Source: an uncultured virus (IMG/VR IMGVR_UViG_3300044619_001509) (Duplodnaviria > Heunggongvirae > Uroviricota > Caudoviricetes). From it: a stretch of DNA of 64,000 bases. The position numbers and the translations under genes were made by a program. A model generated the notes under the pieces. That model was not told the origin of the DNA. It saw only the letters and a list, made by a program, of their open reading frames with translations, and ran no database searches. Within the stretch, counting starts at the first letter, position 1, and every line of letters begins with the position of its first letter. Shown here piece by piece: positions 41,758 to 63,544 of the stretch. The stretch is taken from IMG/VR virus record IMGVR_UViG_3300044619_001509. One strand, given 5' to 3'.

Positions 41758-43473
41758 GTGATAACATTTAAGAGTATAAAATGGAAAAATTTCCTAAGTA
41801 CGGGAAATACATTTACTGAAATCGACTTTCTCAAGGCAAATACAACTTTAATCAACGGATCTAATGGAGCAGGAAAAACAACTCTTTTGGATGCGTTGTG
41901 TTTTGTATTGTTTGGTAAACCGTACAGAAACATTAATATTCCGCAACTCGTCAATTCGATCAACGAAAAAGATTTAAGAGTTGAGATAGAGTTTAATGTG
42001 GAACAAACTGAATATAAAATTATTCGTGGTCTTGCGCCTAAAATTTTTGAGATATACAAGAATGGTACTCTCATAAACCAAGACGCAAAATCAAAAGATT
42101 ATCAGCAAATGTTTGAGACTCAAATTCTTAAAATGAACTACAAGTCTTTTTGTCAGGTAGTTATTTTAGGTTCAACAAACTATACTCCTTTTATGCGTCT
42201 GAGTGCTGCGGACAGACGAGCAATCGTTGAAAGCCTATTGGACATCAATATATTTTCAACCATGAATACAATACTTAAAGGTAAAATGTCAACCCTTAAG
42301 GATGAGATGAAAGAAATTGATATGTCGGTTAAGTTGCTCAAGCAGGAGCAGGATAGTCAAGAAAAATTCATAGAAAACTTAAAAAACAATAGTAAATCTA
42401 CTTTAGATAAGCATTCTGTTGAACTGAAGAATTCTATGAATCAAATATCCGAATTGACTGAGGATATACAAAATTTAAATAATAGACTGACAGAATATTC
42501 AGAAAGTATTGCAGACAGCGCAAATACAAACAAGTCCAAGACAAAACTCATTTTGCTGCAAGATCAGATTGAAGTAAATGTAAAAGCAGCACAAAAGAGT
42601 CTCAAGTTCTATGAAACTAACAATACCTGTCCAACTTGCTCACAGAATATAGAGGAGCAAGTAAAGTGCAAGCACATTGAAGAAAAAACAAATGCTATTG
42701 CAGAATATACTAATGGATTGACTGAACTAGAACAAAAAATTAAAGATATTGACAACGAACTAATTCAGATAGAGATTGCAAATAAAAAAATCTTAAATCT
42801 CGAAAAAGAAATATCAAGTAAAAATAGTTTGTTGGTGAGTACGACAAAGTACATGAAAAAGATTCAATCGGAAATAGATGAATTAAATCAAGATAAAGAA
42901 AATATTGAAAAAGAAGAGCAGTTGTTAACTGATATTCGTAGTAAATGGAATGATGCAAACGAAAAGCGTAAAATGCTTTTGGAAGATTCTTATTATTACA
43001 CTTTAATCAGTAGTCTTATCAAGGATGGTGGAATAAAGGCCAAAATCATTAAGCATTATCTTCCAATCATGAATAAAATTATTAATAATTATTTGTCTCA
43101 TATGAATTTCTTTGTTAAGTTTGAACTAAATGAGAACTTTGAAGAATCGATTAAAAGCAGACATCGTGATGATTTTACCTACGATAGTTTTAGTGAAGGT
43201 GAAAAAAGAAAAATTGATCTTGCTCTTTTGTTTGCATGGAGAGCAACCGCTCAGTTAAAGAATTCTGTAAATTGTAATCTGATGATTTTTGATGAGGTTC
43301 TTGATGGTAGTCTGGATGATTCATCTATTGAATCTTTCCTAGATATTTTGAAAGGACTAAAGAAAACAAGTAATATTATTGTAATAAGTCATAAACCAAA
43401 AGAACTATTACAAGACAAGTTTGAAAATCATATTACATTTATTAAAAAGAATAACTTTAGCGTTATGCAATGA
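41758..43473 (+). CDS. gp46: Rad50/SbcC-like recombination ATPase
   Basis: WKNFLSTGN, GSNGAGKTT, zinc hook CPTC, FSEGE, IFDE, ISH. Confidence 0.96.
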   Translation: MITFKSIKWKNFLSTGNTFTEIDFLKANTTLINGSNGAGKTTLLDALCFVLFGKPYRNINIPQLVNSINEKDLRVEIEFNVEQTEYKIIRGLAPKIFEIYKNGTLINQDAKSKDYQQMFETQILKMNYKSFCQVVILGSTNYTPFMRLSAADRRAIVESLLDINIFSTMNTILKGKMSTLKDEMKEIDMSVKLLKQEQDSQEKFIENLKNNSKSTLDKHSVELKNSMNQISELTEDIQNLNNRLTEYSESIADSANTNKSKTKLILLQDQIEVNVKAAQKSLKFYETNNTCPTCSQNIEEQVKCKHIEEKTNAIAEYTNGLTELEQKIKDIDNELIQIEIANKKILNLEKEISSKNSLLVSTTKYMKKIQSEIDELNQDKENIEKEEQLLTDIRSKWNDANEKRKMLLEDSYYYTLISSLIKDGGIKAKIIKHYLPIMNKIINNYLSHMNFFVKFELNENFEESIKSRHRDDFTYDSFSEGEKRKIDLALLFAWRATAQLKNSVNCNLMIFDEVLDGSLDDSSIESFLDILKGLKKTSNIIVISHKPKELLQDKFENHITFIKKNNFSVMQ

Positions 43474-43919
43474 AATTAGCCACTCTTGATGATTACGAAG
43501 ACATTATAAAAATATTTTACGAAAATCGAAGCATCTTTCCACACATTCGTACAGATTACTTAAAGCGAATGATAGAATCCAAAAAGTGTTTCTATAAAGA
43601 TGGAGTTGTGATAACATTTAATCAGTATAAACGAACCAATAAGATTGGAAATGTTTATGCGAATAAAAATTCATACACCATTAAGCAAATAGTAAACAAA
43701 TATAAAGGTAATGGGAAAGCAGCAGAAATATTAAAAGAGTTCTTGCAATCCATCCAAGAACCTGTATACTTGTCGGTGCGAGCAGATAATGTTCGTGCAA
43801 ATTCGTTTTACAAAAAGATGAATTTTGAATTAGTTGGAACAATCAATTGGAAAAACGGTACAATACCAGGCCATGTCTACCTCTACTCAGAAACCACGCC
43901 CAGAATACGAACGAAATGA
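43470..43919 (+). CDS. GNAT-family acetyltransferase
   Basis: QIV...KGNGKA (motif A) and LSVRADNVRANSFYKKMNF (motif B). Confidence 0.8.
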   Translation: MKLATLDDYEDIIKIFYENRSIFPHIRTDYLKRMIESKKCFYKDGVVITFNQYKRTNKIGNVYANKNSYTIKQIVNKYKGNGKAAEILKEFLQSIQEPVYLSVRADNVRANSFYKKMNFELVGTINWKNGTIPGHVYLYSETTPRIRTK

Positions 43920-45474
43920 TCATGTCATCAATTCGGAAATAAATGTTTGTTTTGAAGATTTACTTGCAATGACACCTGATGAGTTTAAAAATTGGGTCAT
44001 CAAAATGCGAGAAGTTATTCGTGAAGCATGGGACACTCATGGGTGTCCTCCACGAACAGGTAAAAATCAAGATGAGATTGTTGATGCTTTCAATCGACTA
44101 GAATCTTTTCCTGTTCATGAATTTGAGTTCAATGATGAACTAGAAAACAATTCTTATCCCGATGTTATTATAAACAAATCGCGGGTTGGTGTAGAAGTCG
44201 ATCAGTGGTTTTCTAACATGTTCAAGACGAGAATCAATTATAGTGAAAAGGACAATGGGTATTCAATCTACGATCTAATTGCCGATCCAAATAAATTGGA
44301 TCGTGTAGTCAAAGGTTGTATGCGTCATTTGAGGAGAGATTCTTTCTATTCTCATGCTCTTTCTGCAATAAAACATTCTACCAAGTATTCGGTTGTGGAT
44401 GTTGCCACAGGTGACGAATGGATGGAAGCATTCTTCAATAATCCTTCTATATTTGAAGGACACGATTTCATGTTGGAGCAAATCAAACCAAAGATCGGAA
44501 TGAATAGTGGTTACTTTCAATTAGATCAGTCTGACATTTTAGTATTATCAAAAGAACAAGTAGAAAAGTGGAAAGAAAAAATGTCATACAGGCATCATTC
44601 CACTTTCGATATTAGTAATATGCCTGATGATAAAATTTATTCTATACGACTTTACAGAAAGGGAGAAAAAGTTTTTCCTTCTGGATTTAAATGTTTTAGA
44701 ATAGGTTACATTCAACCCGCAGTAAATTTTCCACCATTAACAGCAAAGTACCTTTATGAAAGATTTACAAATCATATTTATCAAGATCAAGTGGTTATTT
44801 TCGATCCTTCTAGCGGTTGGGGTGGTCGTATTTTGGGTGCTATGTCTATTTCTGATGATACCTGTGTCCATTATGTGGGTACTGACCCAAATACCGATAA
44901 TTTTCCAAATAGCTTGGAACGATACGGCAAATACGGTAGTCTCGCGGATTTCTACAATCAAAAAACATATCGCGGCAATTCGATCTTCACGCCACCAAAC
45001 ACCTACGAAATCTTCATGCTTGGATCAGAAGTCATTGGAGATTCTGAAGGATTCGCCAAGTACAAAGGAAAAGTGGATTTAGTATTTACCTCTCCTCCCT
45101 ATTTTAATCGTGAAGCATACTCAGAAGATCCAACTCAATCCTATAAGAAATTTTCTAATTTTGATTCGTGGGTAGAGGGATTTTTGCGTCCAACTCTCAA
45201 GAATTGCGTAGAATCATTACGCAAAGATAGATATCTTTTATGGAATATATCGGATCTTTTAATTAAGGGAGAGTATCTACCACTTGAAAAAGCAAGTCGA
45301 GATATTCTCGAAGAATATGGTATGAGATATGAATACACCCTCAAAATGGCTTTGGAACCCATGCCAGGTCAAAATCGTGTAGATGAAGATGGTATTCCTA
45401 AATGTAAAAATTACTGTAAAGTAAATGGTAGGATGCTAAAGTACGAACCCGTTTTTGTATTTTACAAACCTTGA
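43873..45474 (+). CDS. DNA amino-methyltransferase (N4-C/N6-A type)
   Basis: SAM-binding FDPSSGWGGR (~44800) and catalytic FTSPPYF (~45085); start uncertain. Confidence 0.75.
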   Translation: MSTSTQKPRPEYERNDHVINSEINVCFEDLLAMTPDEFKNWVIKMREVIREAWDTHGCPPRTGKNQDEIVDAFNRLESFPVHEFEFNDELENNSYPDVIINKSRVGVEVDQWFSNMFKTRINYSEKDNGYSIYDLIADPNKLDRVVKGCMRHLRRDSFYSHALSAIKHSTKYSVVDVATGDEWMEAFFNNPSIFEGHDFMLEQIKPKIGMNSGYFQLDQSDILVLSKEQVEKWKEKMSYRHHSTFDISNMPDDKIYSIRLYRKGEKVFPSGFKCFRIGYIQPAVNFPPLTAKYLYERFTNHIYQDQVVIFDPSSGWGGRILGAMSISDDTCVHYVGTDPNTDNFPNSLERYGKYGSLADFYNQKTYRGNSIFTPPNTYEIFMLGSEVIGDSEGFAKYKGKVDLVFTSPPYFNREAYSEDPTQSYKKFSNFDSWVEGFLRPTLKNCVESLRKDRYLLWNISDLLIKGEYLPLEKASRDILEEYGMRYEYTLKMALEPMPGQNRVDEDGIPKCKNYCKVNGRMLKYEPVFVFYKP

Positions 45475-45499
45475 CATGGCGCAGACAATCTGATACACT
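45471..45499 (+). promoter_or_regulatory. Sigma70-type early promoter, probably leaderless
   Basis: TTGACA-17 nt-TACACT with TGn; ATG begins 7 nt after the -10 box. Confidence 0.75.
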
Positions 45500-51149: not shown

Positions 51150-51535
51150 TGATTCCTTATTCTTACGATCTTACATTTAATAAAAATACGGATTTTCGTT
51201 TATCCTTTCAAGCACTTGAGGATGATAACACAACTCCTTTGTTTTTTAATGGAACAAATGCAATTGCAACTTACGAATGTAGAATGATTGTGACAAGAGC
51301 ATTAAATGGTGGAGAAACTGTTCTTGAAATTTCAAATTATCCATCGACAAATCAAAATATAAATGATACAATAGATTTTTCTGTGACTGTAGATGGAAGA
51401 ATCGACATAGATATAAGCGAAGAAACTATCAACACTTTGACAAATAATAAGTATCATTATACGATAATTTTATCCTCATCATCGGGATATGATCAAATGT
51501 TACTCAGAGGACGAGTTGATGTGTTTGGAGGTTGA
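51149..51535 (+). CDS. Hypothetical beta-sandwich adapter-like protein (paralog-like to 28850-29413)
   Basis: YDLTFNKNTDF...RM...GRIDIDIS...YHYTI...LLRGRV pattern. Confidence 0.55.
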   Translation: MIPYSYDLTFNKNTDFRLSFQALEDDNTTPLFFNGTNAIATYECRMIVTRALNGGETVLEISNYPSTNQNINDTIDFSVTVDGRIDIDISEETINTLTNNKYHYTIILSSSSGYDQMLLRGRVDVFGG

Positions 51536-52638
51536 CTGTGAAACGATCCGAACTCTTTGTACTACCCAGTAGCATTTCAAAATTATTTCTACCAAACGGA
51601 ACCGAAAATCCAAATGTAGATAATATTGATTATTATCCAAGGCATCTTCAGCCATTTTATGGTAATTTGCACATAATTAATGCAAATACAAGCACTATCG
51701 GTGAAGATTCGTTTGGTAATCTCGTTGCGGGTTGGAATCCAAATCAAAGAAATTTTAATCTAGTTACAGATATAGTAAATAATTTTCCCCGTCATATGCT
51801 ACAAAACCTTGTGGTGATTGCGGGAAAAGACGGAACCGCAATTCCTATTGCTGGTTCTTATTTTACAAAAATGATGGATCATGAGCCTGGTACGATTGAA
51901 CCACTTTCGTGTCTAATTACGGATGAAAACGGTGATATAGTAGGATTAAATTTTACAAGTTCTATAACTATTGCTGGACTTGTTAATAGTGGAACCAATA
52001 CTGGTGATCAAAATCTATTTTCTACGATTGCTGTAGCAGGTCAATCAAATGTTGTTGCTGATACAACATCGGATACCTTGACATTAGTTGCTGGATCTGG
52101 TATAGCAATAACTACAGACGCCACCACTGATACTATTACTATTGCTAGTACTGGTGGTGGTGGAAGTAAAACATATGGAATATTTACTCCACTTGATAAT
52201 CAACCACCAGCAACAAATTATGCAACCATTGATACAAGAAATTCTATTATGATTCTAGATTTTGATGCTGCTACGCGGGAAGAGGCTGTCTTTGTGTCGG
52301 TTATTCCCGAAGCAGCGGTATTAGGTAGCGGATTGACCGCTAGAATCAACTGGACGGCAACCACGGCAACAACAGGAAACTGCGTCTGGGGAATTCAGTA
52401 TGAAAGAATGAACACGGACATCGACTCGGATTCCTTCGCTACGGCTGCTACCACCACAAGCGCAACAAATGCAACTTCGGGAATCATCACAACCACGACC
52501 ATAACCACAACGAACATCGACGGATTGACGGCAGGAGATCCGTATAGGATCAAGGTGTTCAGGGACGCAGCCAATGGATCCGACACAATGACTGGCGATG
52601 CCGAACTCATCTCAGTCGAAGTAAGGAGCGGTGCATAA
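51532..52638 (+). CDS. Putative fibre/receptor-binding structural protein
   Basis: Thr-rich; NSGTNTGDQN and FSTIAVAGQSNVVAD...TLTLVAGSGIAITT fibre-type motifs; TTG start uncertain. Confidence 0.55.
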   Translation: MTVKRSELFVLPSSISKLFLPNGTENPNVDNIDYYPRHLQPFYGNLHIINANTSTIGEDSFGNLVAGWNPNQRNFNLVTDIVNNFPRHMLQNLVVIAGKDGTAIPIAGSYFTKMMDHEPGTIEPLSCLITDENGDIVGLNFTSSITIAGLVNSGTNTGDQNLFSTIAVAGQSNVVADTTSDTLTLVAGSGIAITTDATTDTITIASTGGGGSKTYGIFTPLDNQPPATNYATIDTRNSIMILDFDAATREEAVFVSVIPEAAVLGSGLTARINWTATTATTGNCVWGIQYERMNTDIDSDSFATAATTTSATNATSGIITTTTITTTNIDGLTAGDPYRIKVFRDAANGSDTMTGDAELISVEVRSGA

Positions 52639-53435
52639 TGTCAATCCGTCAAAATTTTCAAGAATCCGATGGAAACGGAAACTATGTATGGCGCGAATTG
52701 GTGGGAGACCTTACCAGAAGCCTGTTTACTTTTCCATTCACCATCAACTTATGGGTAAAGAAGACTGGCAGCAATGGAACCAAAGTTTTGTCTGTACACC
52801 ACACCAGTTCGGGAGGACAAGTTGCATGTAATGCCTTCATAATAGAAGACAACGCAGGATCACCCCTGAGAATGAGGTTGCGGGCATTGACTTCAAATGG
52901 TAACACATCCCTCACCAACACCAATGTTTCCATAAGCCAGAACACATGGTACATGGTGACGGCAGTAGTCGCAAGCGCGACCAGTCGCATATTGTATGTG
53001 AATGCCGTTGCCTCCACCACATCTACAGTTTCCCGCACCCCATTGACAATTGAGGAATTAGCCATTGGAGCATATCCAAGCAACGATCCAAATTTTGGAA
53101 GCACAAATCCCGTAATTTACACAATTGCGGATGTTCCGTTTGGTATTTCCGCTGAACTTGGTGTATGGAATGCAGCACTTACCGCAGACGAGATCACATC
53201 TCTGCATAAAGGGGCAAGGACGATACAGGTGAGACCTCAGTCCCTCTGTCTCTACTCTCCTTGGATTCGCAACAGTTCCAACGACCTTGTCGGAAAATAC
53301 ACAAGCAATGTTCCTTCATTCAGCCAAGCACCCTATTTCGATGTCGGTGATTACGAGTTTAACGGTGGAACGGTGGTTCCCCGCGTGGTTGAGGATCCTT
53401 TGGTAGAGGTGCATGACATAAGGAGGTATGGATGA
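52638..53435 (+). CDS. LamG/concanavalin-A-like lectin domain protein
   Basis: FTINLWVK, NTWYMVTAV, LYVNA, IGA, AELGVWNAALTADEI..L. Confidence 0.8.
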   Translation: MSIRQNFQESDGNGNYVWRELVGDLTRSLFTFPFTINLWVKKTGSNGTKVLSVHHTSSGGQVACNAFIIEDNAGSPLRMRLRALTSNGNTSLTNTNVSISQNTWYMVTAVVASATSRILYVNAVASTTSTVSRTPLTIEELAIGAYPSNDPNFGSTNPVIYTIADVPFGISAELGVWNAALTADEITSLHKGARTIQVRPQSLCLYSPWIRNSSNDLVGKYTSNVPSFSQAPYFDVGDYEFNGGTVVPRVVEDPLVEVHDIRRYG

Positions 53436-53911
53436 GCAAGTATGCAATAATTCAGAACTCGGCAAATAGTACGATGATTGTAGGAATCAAGGACATAGAA
53501 GATTCCCTGTATTCACAATGGGTATCGACGGGCAATCCAAAAAAGGATGTTTATAGACTTGTCATTGAATCCGAACCCCCAGAAGTATCAAAAAACGAGG
53601 TTGCTGTCAAGTCATTCGTAGTGAATCCTACGACCGTCAATGTCGTGTGGACGGTGCGACAAAAGACACAAGATGAACTTCGCATGATCTTTACGGCATA
53701 TGAGTTCTTGCTTCGGTTCACTCCACAGGAACGAGCGGCTTTCCGCGCTGCTGCAAACACCGATCCTCTCGTCGCGGACTTTCAGCAACTTGCACAGGCT
53801 GCACAGGAGATCGTCAGCGACGATCCACTCACTATTATGGGACTAAATTATTTGATTTCTGTTGGATTATTAACAGAACAAAGAAAGAACGAAATTTTAG
53901 ATATTGTTTAA
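53432..53911 (+). CDS. Hypothetical protein, possible fibre assembly chaperone
   Basis: TAYEFLLRFTPQERAA...DDPLT..GLNYL...GLLTEQRKNEIL is typical of small genes after fibre genes (inference). Confidence 0.5.
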   Translation: MSKYAIIQNSANSTMIVGIKDIEDSLYSQWVSTGNPKKDVYRLVIESEPPEVSKNEVAVKSFVVNPTTVNVVWTVRQKTQDELRMIFTAYEFLLRFTPQERAAFRAAANTDPLVADFQQLAQAAQEIVSDDPLTIMGLNYLISVGLLTEQRKNEILDIV

Positions 53912-53938
53912 CATTTTTGAAATAAGGTAGTATATATT

Positions 53939-54454
53939 ATGAACGAAATTCCAAAATTAAAAATTTATTGTAAATCACCATACGCAACCTATCCAACATA
54001 CGCAACAGAAGATTCTGCATGTTTTGATATACATGCATGTGTTGCTCACGAATCTATTAAAATTTGGTATGAAAATTCAATAGATTCTATTGAAGAATTG
54101 GCAACCGAAGAATCTATAATTCGTGTTATGCCAAAATCTAGAGTATTGATTCCTACTGGAATCATAATGGATATTCCCAAAGGATATTCTGTTCGTTTAC
54201 ACTCTCGTTCGGGATTAGCATTAAAGAATGGTGTTTTTCTTGGTAACTGTGAAGGTGTAATTGATTCGGATTATATTCAAGAGGTAAAAGTAATTTTATA
54301 TAACTCATCTGCTATTCCATTCTTTATTAAACAGGGTGATAGAATTTGTCAAGGAGAACTGGTGAAAAATCTTGACTATTTGCTGGAGAGATGCTATACT
54401 CCTCCTTCAATCAAGACAAATCGTGAAGGTGGATTTGGATCCACAGGAGTATAA
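53939..54454 (+). CDS. dut: Trimeric dUTPase
   Basis: All five motifs: SACFDI, SRSGLA, GVIDSDY, GDRICQ, REGGFGSTG. Confidence 0.93.
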   Translation: MNEIPKLKIYCKSPYATYPTYATEDSACFDIHACVAHESIKIWYENSIDSIEELATEESIIRVMPKSRVLIPTGIIMDIPKGYSVRLHSRSGLALKNGVFLGNCEGVIDSDYIQEVKVILYNSSAIPFFIKQGDRICQGELVKNLDYLLERCYTPPSIKTNREGGFGSTGV

Positions 54455-54776: not shown

Positions 54777-57288
54777 TATTGGAATTCGTGGTAACAATAT
54801 TCTTTACAGGGGTTACGAAAACGGTAAAAGAGTCCATGAAAAGGTTGCTTTTTCCCCTACTCTGTTTGTTCCCACAAATAAAAAAACCATATACAAAACC
54901 CTTTTTGGTCAGCACCTAGAACCGTTTAAGCCTGGTTCTATTAACGATTGTCGTGACTTTTTAGATCGGTATTCGGATGTCGATAATTTTGACATTTACG
55001 GAAATACTGACTACAAATATCAGTTTATTGCTGAAGAATTTTGTCACGAACTGGAGTATGATATTGACAAATTTAATGTGGCATACATAGATATAGAAAC
55101 CAAATGTGAAGAGGGCTTCCCCGATGCAAATGTCGCCAATGAAGAAATTATTGTTATTACTGTTCGCATGGGGAGTACTATTTATACCTTCGGACTTAAT
55201 GATTTTGGCGCTGTTTCTAATAACCATGAATGTTATGTCTTCAGAAGCGAATCAGACCTCCTCGAATCATTCCTAGAATTTTGGGAACAAAAAGACATTG
55301 ATATAGTAACTGGTTGGAATATCAACTTTTTTGATATTCCTTATCTTATTAATAGAATCAATAAGATTTTGGGTGACGGGGAAGCAAAAAGACTTTCTCC
55401 GTGGAATCATATCAAGGAAAGAATTGTTACGGTAATGCAGCGAGATTATACTGTGTATGATCTTGTTGGTATTTCTACTCTTGATTATTTTGATCTTTAT
55501 CGAAAGTTGACATTTGTAAACCGTGAATCATACAAGTTGGATCATATTGCATATGTCGAACTTGGTGAAAGAAAGACTTCATATACCGAATATGACAGTC
55601 TAAGAGACTTCTACACAAAGAACTTTCCGAAGTTTGTCGAGTATAATGTGCGAGATGTTGATCTTGTCGTTAAACTTGAGGAAAAATTGAAGTTGATGGA
55701 ACTTGCTCTGAGAATTGCTTATTCGGCAAAAGTAAACCATAACGATATCTTCTCACAAGTAAAGACTTGGGATCAGATCATTTATCATCATTTGAACTCT
55801 CAAAACATTATTATTCCTCTAAAGAAAGAACAAGAGGAAAAGGAAGACAAGTTTATTGGTGCGTATGTAAAGGAACCCGAAGTCGGAATGCACAAATGGA
55901 TCGCATCGTTTGACTTGGATTCTTTGTATCCACATTTGATTATGCAGTATAATCTTTCGCCAGAAACTATCACATCGGATGGTGCAAGAAATAGTTTTTC
56001 TGTTGATGATGTTTTGGATGAAACAAATAAATTTAAAACATCCATGAAGAGATACTCATCAAAAGATTTGTCTGTCGCAGCAAACGCAACGACCTATCGC
56101 AAAGATAAGCAAGGGTTCTTACCAAAGTTGATGGAAACTTTGTACGAAGAGCGAAAGATGTTTAAAAATAAAATGTTGGAAGCAAAAGCAAAACTTGCCA
56201 AACTTCCCGATACTGCTACGGTTGAAGAGAGGAGCAAACTGAAGAAAGAGATTGCAAAGAATCACAACTTCCAGTTGGCAAGAAAGATTCAACTTAACTC
56301 GGCTTTCGGTGCAATTGGAAATCAATATTTTAGATACTTTAACTTGGATATTGCGGAAGCAATTACTTTGTCGGGTCAATTGTCGATTCGTTGGATTGAA
56401 ACCTGTCTAAACGATTACATGAACAATGCAGTCGGAACAAAAAACGAAAACTATGTTATTGCCAGTGATACAGATAGTATTTACTTGCGAATGGATACAT
56501 TGGTTAATAAAGTATTACCAAATGATACGGACGAGAAAAAAGTAAAGTTTTTGTTGAATGTTTGTGATAAAGCACTACAACCGTTCATTGAAGAAAAATA
56601 CCAAGGATTAGCAACCAAAATGAATGTATATGCACAGAAAATGCATATGAAGCGCGAAGCGATTGCAAACAAAGGTATTTGGACTGCCAAGAAACGATAC
56701 ATGTTAAATGTAATGGTTGGTGAAAGTGGAGTAATACTCAAGACACCCGAACAAAAGATTCTGGGTGTCGAAACCGCACGATCATCTACGCCAGAAATTG
56801 TTCGTGATGCATTGGGTGATTGTATTAATATTATTCTCAATGGTACGGAAGATGAGATGAGAGAATATATTGCGAACTTTGAAAAGAAATTCAACGAATC
56901 TTCAATTGAAGATGTTTCATTCCCTCGCGGATGTAATGGAATGGAAAAGTATGCAGATTCTACACTAATCTACAAAAAATCTACTCCAATTGCAGTAAAG
57001 GGTGCATTGCTGTATAATAACTTTATACGCAAGAACAAACTTCAAAAGAAGTATTCTCTGATCAAAGATGGAGAAAAGATAAAATTTGTTTATCTGAAGC
57101 AACCCAACACGATTGGTGGTTCTGTTGTTTCTTTTGTGGGAAGAGTCCCCGATGAATTTGACTTGAGACGATTTGTGGATTTTGACAAGCAGTTTGAGAT
57201 TTCATTCAAAGAACCGCTCTGTAATATTTTAAATGTAATTGGTTGGAAATTTAAAAAGGAAAACACTCTTGAATCCCTGTTTGCTTGA
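54751..57288 (+). CDS. gp43: Family B DNA polymerase
   Basis: Exo DIET, GWN..FFD, YNVRD; polymerase FDLDSLYP, KIQLNS.FG, SDTDS, KKRY; C-terminal clamp-binding TLESLF. Confidence 0.97.
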   Translation: MSNQKIYTNIGIRGNNILYRGYENGKRVHEKVAFSPTLFVPTNKKTIYKTLFGQHLEPFKPGSINDCRDFLDRYSDVDNFDIYGNTDYKYQFIAEEFCHELEYDIDKFNVAYIDIETKCEEGFPDANVANEEIIVITVRMGSTIYTFGLNDFGAVSNNHECYVFRSESDLLESFLEFWEQKDIDIVTGWNINFFDIPYLINRINKILGDGEAKRLSPWNHIKERIVTVMQRDYTVYDLVGISTLDYFDLYRKLTFVNRESYKLDHIAYVELGERKTSYTEYDSLRDFYTKNFPKFVEYNVRDVDLVVKLEEKLKLMELALRIAYSAKVNHNDIFSQVKTWDQIIYHHLNSQNIIIPLKKEQEEKEDKFIGAYVKEPEVGMHKWIASFDLDSLYPHLIMQYNLSPETITSDGARNSFSVDDVLDETNKFKTSMKRYSSKDLSVAANATTYRKDKQGFLPKLMETLYEERKMFKNKMLEAKAKLAKLPDTATVEERSKLKKEIAKNHNFQLARKIQLNSAFGAIGNQYFRYFNLDIAEAITLSGQLSIRWIETCLNDYMNNAVGTKNENYVIASDTDSIYLRMDTLVNKVLPNDTDEKKVKFLLNVCDKALQPFIEEKYQGLATKMNVYAQKMHMKREAIANKGIWTAKKRYMLNVMVGESGVILKTPEQKILGVETARSSTPEIVRDALGDCINIILNGTEDEMREYIANFEKKFNESSIEDVSFPRGCNGMEKYADSTLIYKKSTPIAVKGALLYNNFIRKNKLQKKYSLIKDGEKIKFVYLKQPNTIGGSVVSFVGRVPDEFDLRRFVDFDKQFEISFKEPLCNILNVIGWKFKKENTLESLFA

Positions 57289-58561
57289 TCTTGTAGATGA
57301 AATTAAAAAATGTGCAGACTCAAATGGACTTCCTATCATACCTTACGATAAGTGGAATGATATGAATAACAATTATTCCAAGCAGGATATTAAAGATGCT
57401 CTTGCTTATTACATTGTTACAGAAAAACCAAAGTTTCCATTTCGTGAGATAGAGGAGTCTGAAGCGGCAAAGAAGTTTCATAGACTCTGTAAGGAAGATT
57501 ATAATAAGTTTTATATTCCTAGATCTTTGTTGCACACAAGAGATGTTCTTGAAAAATATGATGATTACAAGTATCCCTTTTCTGTTTATGGAAACGGACT
57601 AATACAATTTGGTCATTACTATAATGATATTAGTAATATCTTTCAGCAAGAAAATCGATACTCTTGTGGATCATATGGATTTGCTGCGCCACTTGAGATT
57701 TGGAAAGATGAACAACTTCTTCGTAAGATGAACTATACATTTTGGAGATTGGGTAACAAGAGCGTAGGACTTCACAATTGGAGAGGATCTTTTCGCTTGG
57801 GTGCTTATGTTGCAACTCAATTTAAACCTCATGTTGCAAAGACAATATATGATTTAACCAAAGCAAAATCTGTCATGGATACGAGTTGTGGATGGGGAGA
57901 TCGTCTTGCTGCATTTTATGCTTCGAACGCATACGAATATTATGGTTGCGATCCAAACGAAAAAGTATTTGAAACATACAAAAAACAATGTGTTTGGTAT
58001 GAAAAACAATTAGGTTGTAATGAACCCTATATCAAAGAAGAAGAAGATTATTTCTTTTGTTGGGGTAAAAAGTATGTGGTGATACACAGAAAACCCGCAG
58101 AAGATATAGATTGGAATACTAGATCCAATCCAATTGATTGTTTATTTACTTCTCCTCCATATTTTTCTACGGAACTTTACAATAGGGGTGGAGAAAACGA
58201 AAAAGATCAATCATGGGCCAGATACATTGAATATAGTAACTGGAGAGATGGGTTCTTGTTTCCAATGCTAACAAATGCATGGAAAGTAATCAATGATGGG
58301 GGATATGTAATGATTAATATTATGGATCCTGTTATTGGTGGAATAAGATACAGAACTTGCGATGAAATGGTTGACTTTATGTGCAATCAACTAGGAGCAA
58401 ACTTTATTGGTCAAATTGGCATGAGAATCAAACAAAGACCAAAAAAGACAAACGATCTGTCTGCTTTCCTAGAAAAAGATTTTATTGAAAATATTTGGTG
58501 CTTTGGTAAAGGGGTTGACAAACTACCTACTAATGGTACACTAGAAAACTATATGGAGTAA
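57269..58561 (+). CDS. Second DNA amino-methyltransferase (N4-C/N6-A type)
   Basis: ATQFKP.VAK, MDTSCGWGDR, FTSPPYF; TTG start after AAGGA. Confidence 0.75.
   Translation: MNPCLLDLVDEIKKCADSNGLPIIPYDKWNDMNNNYSKQDIKDALAYYIVTEKPKFPFREIEESEAAKKFHRLCKEDYNKFYIPRSLLHTRDVLEKYDDYKYPFSVYGNGLIQFGHYYNDISNIFQQENRYSCGSYGFAAPLEIWKDEQLLRKMNYTFWRLGNKSVGLHNWRGSFRLGAYVATQFKPHVAKTIYDLTKAKSVMDTSCGWGDRLAAFYASNAYEYYGCDPNEKVFETYKKQCVWYEKQLGCNEPYIKEEEDYFFCWGKKYVVIHRKPAEDIDWNTRSNPIDCLFTSPPYFSTELYNRGGENEKDQSWARYIEYSNWRDGFLFPMLTNAWKVINDGGYVMINIMDPVIGGIRYRTCDEMVDFMCNQLGANFIGQIGMRIKQRPKKTNDLSAFLEKDFIENIWCFGKGVDKLPTNGTLENYME
58515..58542 (+). promoter_or_regulatory. Sigma70-type early promoter for uvsX-gp41
   Basis: TTGACA-16 nt-TACACT with TGn. 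Confidence 0.7.
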
Positions 58562-62242: not shown

Positions 62243-62889
62243 ATGAAGAAGAATTTGATAAGTACAATGAACAATTGCTCAACACTGTTCTACAATTTAA
62301 TGAACTGTTTTCAGATTATATAAAAGAAATGGATCCCGTTCTTTGGAATAAAGCAAGAGAATATGCTAAGGATTTTTCTAAGAACGAATCAATAATTCTA
62401 GAAGAAGTATCTGAAAAGACGCCAGAAAAGATTTTATCCAACACTCAACGACAAACTATTTTTCTTAAACTCACAGCATCTTATATTCAAAATATTTCAA
62501 ATGAATATCAAGAATTTGTTCTGGAAAATATAAAACTTTCCACGGAAGAAATTAAAAGCAAATGGTTGAAGAAAAATAAAGACAATAACTATACAGAAAA
62601 AGATCCATTTGGAGCAGAGAAAGATCTTGATCTTTTTATCTCATGTAATCACCGATTCTCTTTTGATAAATTCGATGATAGTGATTGGATGGATTACATT
62701 TATATCCTGATAAATTGCACAAAAGATATTAATTTTGTAAAGAGATTCAAGAAGATTTTCGAAGAGCATCACACGGAAGATAATAAAGAACTTTATAACT
62801 ACTATCGGGCTTGTATGGGCGCATATGCTGCTCAGATTCGAATGCTTCAAAAACTCGAAAACAAGGAAGAACAAGATGACACCGAATAA
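62239..62889 (+). CDS. Hypothetical protein
   Basis: About 216-aa ORF with ATGA overlap on the primase stop. Confidence 0.55.
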
Positions 62890-63544
62890 TCCTGTTAGGC
62901 TTATTTCTGTTACTACTCCTCAATTAGAGGAATTTAAGAATTTGTCCGCAGATGAATTGCTTGCTGCAATTGCAAGAGTAAGCAATCCAAACAATCAAAC
63001 CAATACAGAAACGATGCCAAAAATGTTAAAGTATTGTATTGATCATAAGCATTGGAGTGTGTTTGAGATGGTTGATATGACTGTTGAGATTACAACTTCA
63101 AGAATGATTGCTGCTCAAATTTTGCGTCATCGTAGTTTTGTGTTCCAAGAGTTTTCCCAAAGATACGCAAAAGCAAGCAATTTTGTTCCTATTGTCCCGA
63201 GAAGACAAGACACAAAGAATCGGCAAAATTCTATTGATGATCTTGACGAAGAGACAAAGAAAGCATTTATACAATATCAATATGATAAATGGATAGAAAA
63301 TAAAAACATGTATGATTTCTTCATCGAAAAAGGTGTAGCAAAGGAATGTGCTAGAGGTATTTTACCTTTAAACACAGAAACTACCCTATACATGAAAGGC
63401 AATGTCCGTAGTTGGATACATTACCTCGAAATTCGTACTGATCCGTCCACTCAATTAGAACACCGAGAAATCGCTGTCGAGATTAAAAAAATCTTTGTGG
63501 AGACTTTTCCTATTGTAGCATCTGCGCTGAATTGGAAAACATAA
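62876..63544 (+). CDS. thyX: Flavin-dependent thymidylate synthase
   Basis: [42 protein letters not shown]. Confidence 0.95.

Follow-up and report, generated by a model that had tools for sequence, protein, structure and literature searches.

We analysed a 64,000-nucleotide (nt) stretch of DNA from an uncultured virus of the Caudoviricetes (IMG/VR record IMGVR_UViG_3300044619_001509), hereafter the window, and focus on two overlapping genes that encode a GNAT-fold acetyltransferase and an enlarged amino-methyltransferase-type enzyme that we call MT1. The window belongs to the genome of a marine T4-like myovirus that is distant from cultured phages: among the 2608 records that match its major capsid protein, identity does not exceed 54%. 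The genes run in the order gp47, a denV-like glycosylase, an unassigned open reading frame (ORF), gp46, GNAT, MT1, a phrog_11903 protein, RNase H, gp45, gp44 and gp62; coordinates without a locus name refer to the window, and the gp46, GNAT, MT1 and MT2 genes lie on the + strand. The SbcC/Rad50-like recombination nuclease subunit gp46 (41758..43473; phrog_77, E value 1.6e-166; PF13476 and PF02463) ends in a TGA (43471-43473) that overlaps the ATG of the GNAT gene (43470-43472) in an ATGA junction, and the ATG of MT1 (43873) sits inside the GNAT gene, 47 nt ahead of the GNAT stop codon (43917-43919). These junctions bear out a sequence-only reading of the window, in which the GNAT gene was coupled to gp46 and overlapped the methyltransferase start by about 47 nt. 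The only in-frame MT1 starts 5' of the conserved N-terminal block YERNDHV are ATG 43873 and TTG 43834, and because homologues align from MT1 residues 1-12 we take the overlap to be 47 nt (86 nt if the TTG start were used). At the 31-nt gap after MT1 there is a promoter-like TTGACA-17-TACACT sequence with a TG extension (45471..45499), a consensus match that could terminate the gp46-GNAT-MT1 unit; across the window such sites number 44 against 41.1 in shuffles, a total that does not stand above shuffles and is uninformative. Megablast of the gp46-GNAT-MT1 region against cultured phages returned zero matches, and neither GNAT nor MT1 is present on the nearest record (G001, 20.9 kb).

The GNAT gene (43470..43919) encodes a basic protein of 149 amino acids (aa), with an isoelectric point (pI) of 9.71, that matches phrog_1249 (E = 8.2e-07). 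Its score is under the Pfam gathering cut-off (PF13673, 20.3 bits against 23.6), and the RimI model of NCBIfam gave 29.4 bits with a cut-off of 86.4. Relatives do exceed Pfam cut-offs: the GNAT of locus L120 reaches 26.3 bits against 22.1 for FR47 and 23.9 against 23.6 for PF13673, and the relatives P0137, P0140 and P0142 match both PF13673 and PF00583. The AlphaFold model of the window protein has a predicted local distance difference test score (pLDDT) of 91.8. VIA aligned 139 of its residues to 2pc1 (Z 16.7, root-mean-square deviation 2.1) and matched it to 231 chains at Z of at least 8, among them RimI (Z 15.5) and archaeal Ard1 (Z 15.0-15.1), and Foldseek returned Naa60 (E = 1.6e-06). On the basis of this modelled alpha/beta fold, and despite the Pfam score below the cut-off, we are confident that the protein belongs to the GNAT superfamily.

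The best-conserved part of the GNAT family is the block FPHIRTDY (residues 23-30; 43536..43559), in which F23, P24, H25, R27, D29 and Y30 are invariant in an alignment of 22 sequences. In the model this block forms the loop between helices 1 and 2 (residues 6-18 and 28-36), and it is likely to be the site of the acceptor substrate. The motif A region QIVNKYKGNGKA (residues 73-84; 43686..43721), with Q73 and G82 invariant and G80 present in at least 90% of the sequences, is likely, judging from the motif, to be the acetyl-CoA pyrophosphate loop, and acetyl transfer would be the predicted reaction. Motifs A and B line up with the same motifs of Naa50 and PaiA. The first position of motif A (Q/R-x-x-G-x-G/A) is K77 in the window protein and is variable in the family, and in motif B the residues R104, N107, A110, F113 and Y114 are invariant in the same alignment. 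The family as a whole is basic, with a median pI of 9.67 over the 22 members against a median of 5.71 over 57 window ORFs. Relatives in cultured phages were sought by tblastn and none were found among 50,697 records.

MT1 (43873..45474) encodes a 533-aa enzyme of the SPPY amino-methyltransferase type, in which motif I stands ahead of motif IV. PF01555 matches it at 27.6 bits (cut-off 26.7) over profile positions 1-70 of 221 only, around TSPPYF, and matches 45 of 49 family members. Relatives of MT1 (2310 clusters at 90% identity; 3820 representatives at 50%) come from uncultured aquatic T4-like phages; in cultured phages tblastn found 24 records, at 26-33% identity and in the catalytic half, and NCBIfam held no match for MT1 or for its paralogue MT2. 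When 49 homologues (30-81% identity) are aligned, motif I (DPSSGWGGR, residues 311-319; 44803..44829), which is predicted to bind S-adenosylmethionine (SAM), shows invariant D311, G315 and R319 and is kept in four divergent forms. Motif IV (TSPPYF, residues 406-411; 45088..45105), the predicted catalytic amino-group pocket, has invariant S407 and Y410, with T406, P408, P409 and F411 in at least 90% of the sequences, and aligns with VTSPPY of the solved DNA cytosine-N4 methyltransferase 8s9n. An invariant serine in motif IV is typical of N4-cytosine enzymes. The order of the two motifs is the reverse of that in the beta class modelled by PF01555 and is the same as in gamma-type M.BseCI.

Motif I begins at residue 311, in agreement with the earlier count of about 310 residues ahead of the SAM motif. 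In the AlphaFold model of MT1 (pLDDT 91.6, predicted template modelling score 0.89) the Rossmann fold starts at about residue 285-306, and about 265-285 residues therefore make up an extra N-terminal region. This region (residues 1-285; 43873..44727) is mainly helical with a small beta subdomain and is conserved in the long-form family, with W41, W53, P59, F113, S131 and D156 among its conserved residues. No Pfam family was found for it in the 49 members, whose matches are to PF01555 and Eco57I only, and an atlas search with residues 1-250 gave top scores of 0.79 and 0.78 to unnamed viral clusters, which serve as leads only.

When a profile of the MT1 catalytic core was compared with the PDB, the matches were weak and six of the seven best were DNA methylases: M.BseCI (E = 0.0014), DNA cytosine-N4 methyltransferases (0.0041 and 0.0081; the entries are 8s9n, matched in both halves in permuted order, and 8s9m), a TTHA0409-type enzyme (0.016), DpnA (0.092) and CcrM (0.16). 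The single non-DNA entry among the seven was ToxA (0.034), and a full-length MT1 profile gave zero matches to PDB sequences at E up to 1. Among predicted structures of viral proteins, the top matches (E = 1.7e-14 to 1e-10) come from giant viruses and phages and carry annotations as N4-cytosine or other DNA methylases. MT1 shares its SPPY motif IV and its motif I with the orphan DNA amino-methyltransferases of phages and giant viruses (PF01555 enzymes, the ParB-methyltransferase fusions phrog_67 and phrog_498, and gamma-order M.BseCI-like enzymes), to which its sequence matches are weak but consistent and among which its best structural matches in viral proteins are found. It differs from them in covering 70 of 221 PF01555 positions, in having motif I first, in its N-terminal domain of about 280 residues without a known family and in its GNAT partner. 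From the weak but uniform sequence relatives, the ParB fusions in relatives and the replication-module context we conclude that MT1 probably acts on DNA, and the relatives and gene context uphold the description of an amino-methyltransferase of DNA type among replication and recombination genes.

A second gene, MT2 (57239..58561), is a paralogue of the MT1 catalytic domain and has no GNAT gene alongside. It lies farther along the window, where gp43 is followed by MT2, UvsX, gp41 and gp61, and thus sits between the DNA polymerase gene gp43 and UvsX. BLASTP aligned the two proteins over the core only (26% identity, 236 columns, E = 3e-14), and MT2 scores 22.9 bits with PF01555. Its N-terminal region differs from that of MT1; its listed TTG start overlaps the end of gp43, and the true start may be later.

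To describe the linkage of the pair we surveyed loci from both sides. The surveyed loci are fragmentary and many of them are closely related; several loci of the GNAT-side set are on the same contigs as those of the MT1-side set. On the GNAT side, we read the best 80 of 172 relatives, of which 68 were informative (the contigs of the other 12 end too soon). A methyltransferase of the MT1/MT2 family directly adjoins the GNAT gene in 65 of these 68 loci, downstream in 61 and upstream in 4; one locus (L137) has a single gene in between, and two (L134 and L146) have no methyltransferase. Three size classes of partner are seen: the long MT1 forms have about 525-567 aa, the short forms about 360 aa and those encoded upstream 334-425 aa. 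Partners outside the clade of MT1 are 27-32% identical to it and share with it the catalytic core only. In a maximum-likelihood tree of 61 distinct GNAT sequences, eight of nine deep lineages, by our reading, adjoin a methyltransferase. The two genes overlap elsewhere too, by 32 nt in L088 and also in L120, the latter with reversed gene order on a 455-kb contig (54% GC in the locus).

The setting of the pair also varies. In L163 and L164 the GNAT gene and a short methyltransferase gene are 0.4-1.7 kb apart, away from gp46 and beside a gp45-like clamp gene, which the methyltransferase abuts in both. Both loci (on contigs of 142.6 kb and 111.2 kb, respectively) stem from single-cell assemblies labelled Pelagibacteraceae, and L164 also encodes a serine recombinase-like protein. 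The two contigs may be genomes of phages sampled inside infected cells and would then give a clue to the host range of the group. A gene for an AspH-like protein (PF05118) is present in 55 of the 80 GNAT loci, mostly directly upstream of GNAT and with a 200-300-nt gap in about 9, and it is also found at both GNAT loci without a methyltransferase. In L088 this AspH-like 2-oxoglutarate-oxygenase homologue (L088:2391-3029) overlaps the GNAT gene.

The two activities are joined naturally in a single protein. P0296 (562 aa) combines a methyltransferase, with residues 171-397 matching MT1 residues 286-533 (32% identity, E = 8e-31), and a GNAT, with residues 419-560 matching the window GNAT (39%, E = 1e-29). 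Its 90% cluster has nine members from Logan, NCBI, JGI and ENA, seven of 562 aa, one of 559 aa and one of 400 aa; the fusion was searched for in viral contigs and was not found there. Six metagenome loci hold the methyltransferase part of P0296 (78-90% identity) without the GNAT, four of them with at least 450 nt of downstream DNA. The existence of the fusion together with close relatives that lack the GNAT argues for repeated gain or loss of the GNAT, in every case on this methyltransferase family. The remaining long GNAT-containing matches are of a different kind: P0293 and P0294 join a GNAT to a clamp-like protein, P0294 with an AspH-like part in between, and may be gene-call read-throughs, and P0297 looks chimeric.

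From the MT1 side, we read the best 80 of 151 viral-contig relatives, 72 of which were informative (at least 450 nt upstream, or GNAT present) and 8 too short. MT1 nearly always follows gp46 in the 80 loci. The GNAT gene is directly upstream of MT1 in 32 loci and within about 600 nt in two (L047 and L049). In these two, about 600 nt separate GNAT from the best-matching part of MT1 (L047:1608-2213 and L049:3245-3831), and the gap may reflect either insertion of a small gene or disruption of the N-terminal part of MT1. Of the 38 loci without GNAT, 13 have gp46 immediately next to MT1 and 22 have other genes between the two; in the remaining 3, gp46 falls outside the locus. The pairing foreseen in the sequence-only reading therefore holds when followed from the GNAT, with 65 of 68 loci and a fusion, and fails as an obligate association when followed from MT1.

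In 18 of the 80 MT1 loci (for example, L016:4184-4957) GNAT is replaced, between gp46 and MT1, by a gene for a PALP-like protein resembling pyridoxal-phosphate (PLP) enzymes (243-257 aa). Seventeen of these are among the 22 loci with intervening genes, and the eighteenth (L073) is one that does not include gp46. Not one of the 160 loci carries both GNAT and the PALP-like gene. Among the 50,697 cultured-phage records, just three hold relatives of the PALP-like gene (Erythrobacter phages vB_EliS_R6L and ZS04 and Microcystis phage Mae-JY30), all within ParB-methyltransferase genes annotated as DNA methylases. The vB_EliS_R6L protein (807 aa; L171:2325-4745) has the motif I part of PF01555 at residues 330-370, a PALP domain at 416-573 (40.6 bits, cut-off 35) and then a SCPPY motif IV that aligns with MT1 residues 402-461 (E = 2e-05); its ParB-like N-terminus is an alignment reading and not a family match. 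This layout indicates a PLP-type domain built into a methyltransferase with the motif order of MT1. The other genes found between gp46 and MT1 include a GlnII-type glutamine synthetase, a staphylococcal-nuclease homologue and an endonuclease VII. The GlnII-type gene (NF041605, E = 7.3e-113, under the cut-off) was seen at L068:3917-4978 and in L026, L071 and L072, and is probably an auxiliary nitrogen-metabolism gene.

Because the pair is found in both gene orders, with three classes of partner, in different genomic settings and as a fusion, its coupling goes beyond shared synteny, and we consider it very probable that the GNAT and the MT1-family methyltransferase are functionally coupled. What the coupling serves is less certain. 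The interpretation that we rank first, tentatively and at somewhat less than an even chance, is a DNA-directed two-enzyme modification, in line with the two-step base modification suggested by the sequence-only reading, in which the GNAT would serve a DNA-modifying methyltransferase as an optional tailoring enzyme. The two genes would form a mobile, functionally coupled module. MT1, as a DNA-directed enzyme of the exocyclic-amino type, making N4-methylcytosine or N6-methyladenine (m4C/m6A), would recognize its target through the N-terminal domain of about 280 residues; made together with the replication and recombination genes, it would mark phage DNA after replication. The GNAT would be an add-on kept nearly always beside, or fused to, this methyltransferase family and would use acetyl-CoA on an amine on or next to the base modified by MT1, enlarging a simple mark. 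Other lineages may use a PLP-enzyme-like protein or an AspH-like hydroxylase in the accessory role. That the GNAT itself acts on DNA is a possibility that we also put below one half.

Precedents for such chemistry exist. PaMx11 gp48, a GNAT, acetylates 5-aminomethyl-deoxyuridine in DNA (Lee et al., NAR 2021, PMC8989533). The thymidine hypermodification pathways of phages M6, ViI and PaMx11 have in common with our proposal phage-encoded genes, a GNAT acting as a late tailoring step on a modified base in polymeric DNA and accessory enzymes (a PLP enzyme and an acetyltransferase) that are swapped combinatorially among related phages. A system built on one core enzyme, in which GNAT, PLP-like and hydroxylase partners replace one another, would resemble this combinatorial scheme by analogy. 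The pathways differ in that M6, ViI and PaMx11 start from 5-hydroxymethyl-deoxyuridine (5-hmdU) and employ a base kinase and an amino-acid:DNA transferase (aGPT-Pplase), neither of which is seen in the window. Here the core enzyme is of the SPPY methyltransferase type, the window encodes ThyX (62825-63544) together with a dUTPase-like protein, and a comparison of the PALP-like partner with the PLP decarboxylase records of M6 and ViI gave no match at E up to 0.001.

A second precedent is the phage Mu GNAT Mom, which uses Gly-tRNA to attach glycine to N6 of adenine in DNA; TmcA, similarly, acetylates N4 of cytidine (PMC13219725). Mom is likewise phage-encoded and shows that a GNAT fold can acylate an exocyclic base amine in double-stranded DNA, and it differs in its length (241 aa against 149 aa here) and in acting alone, without a methyltransferase partner. 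The suggestion that the window GNAT is Mom-like was rejected: hhalign of a 22-sequence GNAT profile against Mu Mom (L172:878-1603) gave a probability of 0.17% and an E value of 0.36 over 19 columns, an alignment that places neither R111 nor S124, the catalytic residues of Mom. A proposed link of the pair to the CCWGG context found no support either. CCWGG is mildly depleted in the window, with 35 sites (CCAGG 11 against 25.7 expected, CCTGG 24 against 31.6), their flanks resemble Pro-Gly codon pairs and nothing ties the sites to the pair. Extreme depletion was seen for palindromic 4-mers, observed against expected counts being 0 and 112 for ACGT, 0 and 60 for CCGG, and 31 and 113 for AGCT, with CATG, GTAC, TGCA and TCGA also low. 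The nearest relatives (L001-L003 and L066) show the same avoidance and other lineages differ; the pattern is, judged from these site counts, restriction-site avoidance, as expected for host-specific restriction.

Several observations weigh against a DNA-directed modification by both enzymes. The complete avoidance of ACGT and CCGG suggests that the DNA of the window is not broadly shielded and that MT1, MT2 and the GNAT, whatever their action, leave some sites unprotected; it speaks against a blanket protective hypermodification. Scanning of the window ORFs revealed no hydroxymethylase, base kinase or amino-acid:DNA transferase. The GNAT is missing from 38 of the 72 informative MT1 loci, and none was found anywhere on the MT1 contigs G002 (142 kb, 78% complete) and G003 (118 kb, 66% complete) by a search that did find the positive control, G004; MT1 therefore does not need the GNAT. 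A plain methyl group gives a GNAT nothing obvious to acetylate, so under this proposal the GNAT would have to acetylate that exocyclic amine or one close to it, or else MT1 would have to transfer a group larger than methyl, and acyl groups on N6 of adenine are reported to be unstable (PMC13219725). Among solved structures, the GNAT comes closest to N-terminal acetyltransferases of proteins and to GNATs that act on small molecules (Naa60, archaeal Ard1, RimI and SpeG), and several of its neighbours, such as peptide deformylase and the AspH-like protein, are of protein-modifying types. Much of the co-occurrence of GNAT and methyltransferase is synteny of related phages, and a peptide deformylase gene, too, is found in 52 of the 80 GNAT loci. 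As for MT1, the window protein is acidic (pI 5.63), and the solved structures nearest to it in fold are amino-methyltransferases of RNA and protein that have their motifs in the same order.

A bolder form of the same idea, which we regard as quite unlikely, is that an undescribed family of hypermodification systems for phage DNA is built around MT1-type enzymes and makes a new base mark. The mark on the exocyclic amine may then be larger than methyl (for instance, the aminocarboxypropyl group of SAM) and be tailored by interchangeable partners, through N-acetylation by the GNAT, by the PALP-type enzyme or by the AspH-like hydroxylase; alternatively, the GNAT may act directly on the amine of the base, with N4-acetylcytosine in DNA as one possible product.

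The alternative that survives best, unlikely in our estimate yet by no means negligible, takes the two genes as separate counter-defence tools, MT1 being an orphan anti-restriction methylase and the GNAT a RimI/NAT-like (N-terminal acetyltransferase-like) enzyme that acetylates a host or phage protein, linked and fused only through their simultaneous action, as in phage 'polyvalent proteins'. The best sequence and structure matches of the GNAT, which are protein N-alpha-acetyltransferases, suit this explanation, as do its position after an AspH-like hydroxylase homologue (55 of 80 loci), its company with peptide deformylase (52 of 80) and the many MT1 genes that stand alone. There is precedent as well: Iyer et al. 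(PMC5512222) describe RimI-like GNAT and DNA methylase domains that independently join phage polyvalent conflict proteins. Separate tools would leave unexplained why the GNAT is tied to one methyltransferase family in eight of nine deep lineages, in both orders and in very different genomes, and why a PLP-like domain is found inside related methyltransferases. Moreover, the invariant FPHIRTDY block points to a single conserved acceptor in phages that differ widely in GC content (30-54% over the loci read) and so probably in host.

We consider it improbable that both enzymes act on RNA or the translation apparatus, as a Trm11/TrmN/PrmC-like methyltransferase of N2-methylguanosine (m2G), m6A or glutamine type with an acetyltransferase for ribosomal proteins or tRNA. 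The RimI and NAT matches of the GNAT, the peptide deformylase and AspH-like neighbours in L088-type loci and the fold of MT1 lend themselves to this view: the top solved folds are aTrm11 (Z 15.7), Trm11 (15.4), TrmN (15.3), Trm14 (14.9), METTL5 (14.0) and PrmC (13.2), with RsmC also among them, and the tRNA m2G methyltransferases and PrmC/METTL5 share with MT1 the order of motif I before motif IV (Z 15.7-13.2). The margin of Trm11 over generic methyltransferases (Z of about 13) is about 2 Z units, and we give this ranking little weight for the target because beta-class DNA methylases are circularly permuted and would be penalized by a sequential aligner. Several enzymes of the Trm11/TrmN/Trm14 and PrmC/METTL5 types need the small partner Trm112. 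The partner of MT1 is an enzyme-like GNAT, unlike that zinc-knuckle activator. In MT1 no family-level sequence match to these enzymes and no THUMP or other RNA-binding domain was seen in Pfam searches, which gave no THUMP, UPF0020, Trm11/RlmL or MTS match at E up to 0.1; the region ahead of its methyltransferase domain, where Trm11-type enzymes have THUMP, is mostly helical. Its sequence relatives are DNA methylases, some of them with ParB-like DNA-binding domains, and the pair is embedded among DNA replication genes.

The lack of any functional link is likewise of low probability. In that case the gp46-MT1 junction would be an insertion hot spot and the GNAT one of many co-inherited cargo genes, for which the varied cargo at the junction (GlnII-type, staphylococcal-nuclease homologue, endonuclease VII, PALP-like and others, in 22 of 80 MT1 loci), the strong synteny of T4-like genomes and the presence of peptide deformylase in 52 of 80 GNAT loci could be cited. 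A hot spot does not account for a methyltransferase-GNAT fusion with nine cluster members from several sources, for the reversed order on a 455-kb high-GC contig and in another lineage, for the pair away from gp46 and beside a clamp gene in L163 and L164, or for the absence of a methyltransferase in just two of 68 informative GNAT loci. Least probable of all is the second option of the sequence-only reading, that the GNAT acetylates MT1, on a lysine or the N-terminus, as a switch of its activity: tight translational coupling and fusion would suit an enzyme and its regulator, and a basic GNAT and an acidic MT1 could attract each other, but MT1 N-termini are not conserved whereas the substrate loop of the GNAT is invariant, the partner methyltransferases have the catalytic core alone in common, many MT1 genes have no GNAT and a phage would gain little from regulating an enzyme made only during infection. 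Complex prediction for MT1 and the GNAT, in two runs without controls, gave an ipSAE of 0.00 and speaks neither for nor against binding.

Elsewhere in the window, GC content rises locally to 0.446 (52001-54000) against about 0.35 in the remainder. The rise covers the ORFs at 51532-53911, a stretch between RegA and the dUTPase-like gene in which one ORF has a concanavalin-A-like lectin/glucanase domain (PF13385).

We found no description of the GNAT-MT1 pair in the literature (open-access PMC and bioRxiv). If the GNAT targets a protein instead of DNA, the module would be a compact counter-defence kit, fused or paired. If, as we tentatively favour, the methyltransferase lays down a mark that its GNAT, PLP-like and hydroxylase partners then tailor, the module would represent a new enzymatic route to modified DNA bases, and should MT1-type enzymes prove to be the core of a hypermodification family, very abundant marine phages would carry a new modified base. 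Such a route would bear on the arms races between phages and their hosts in the ocean, on bias when viral DNA from the environment is sequenced and on ways of labelling DNA at specific sites.

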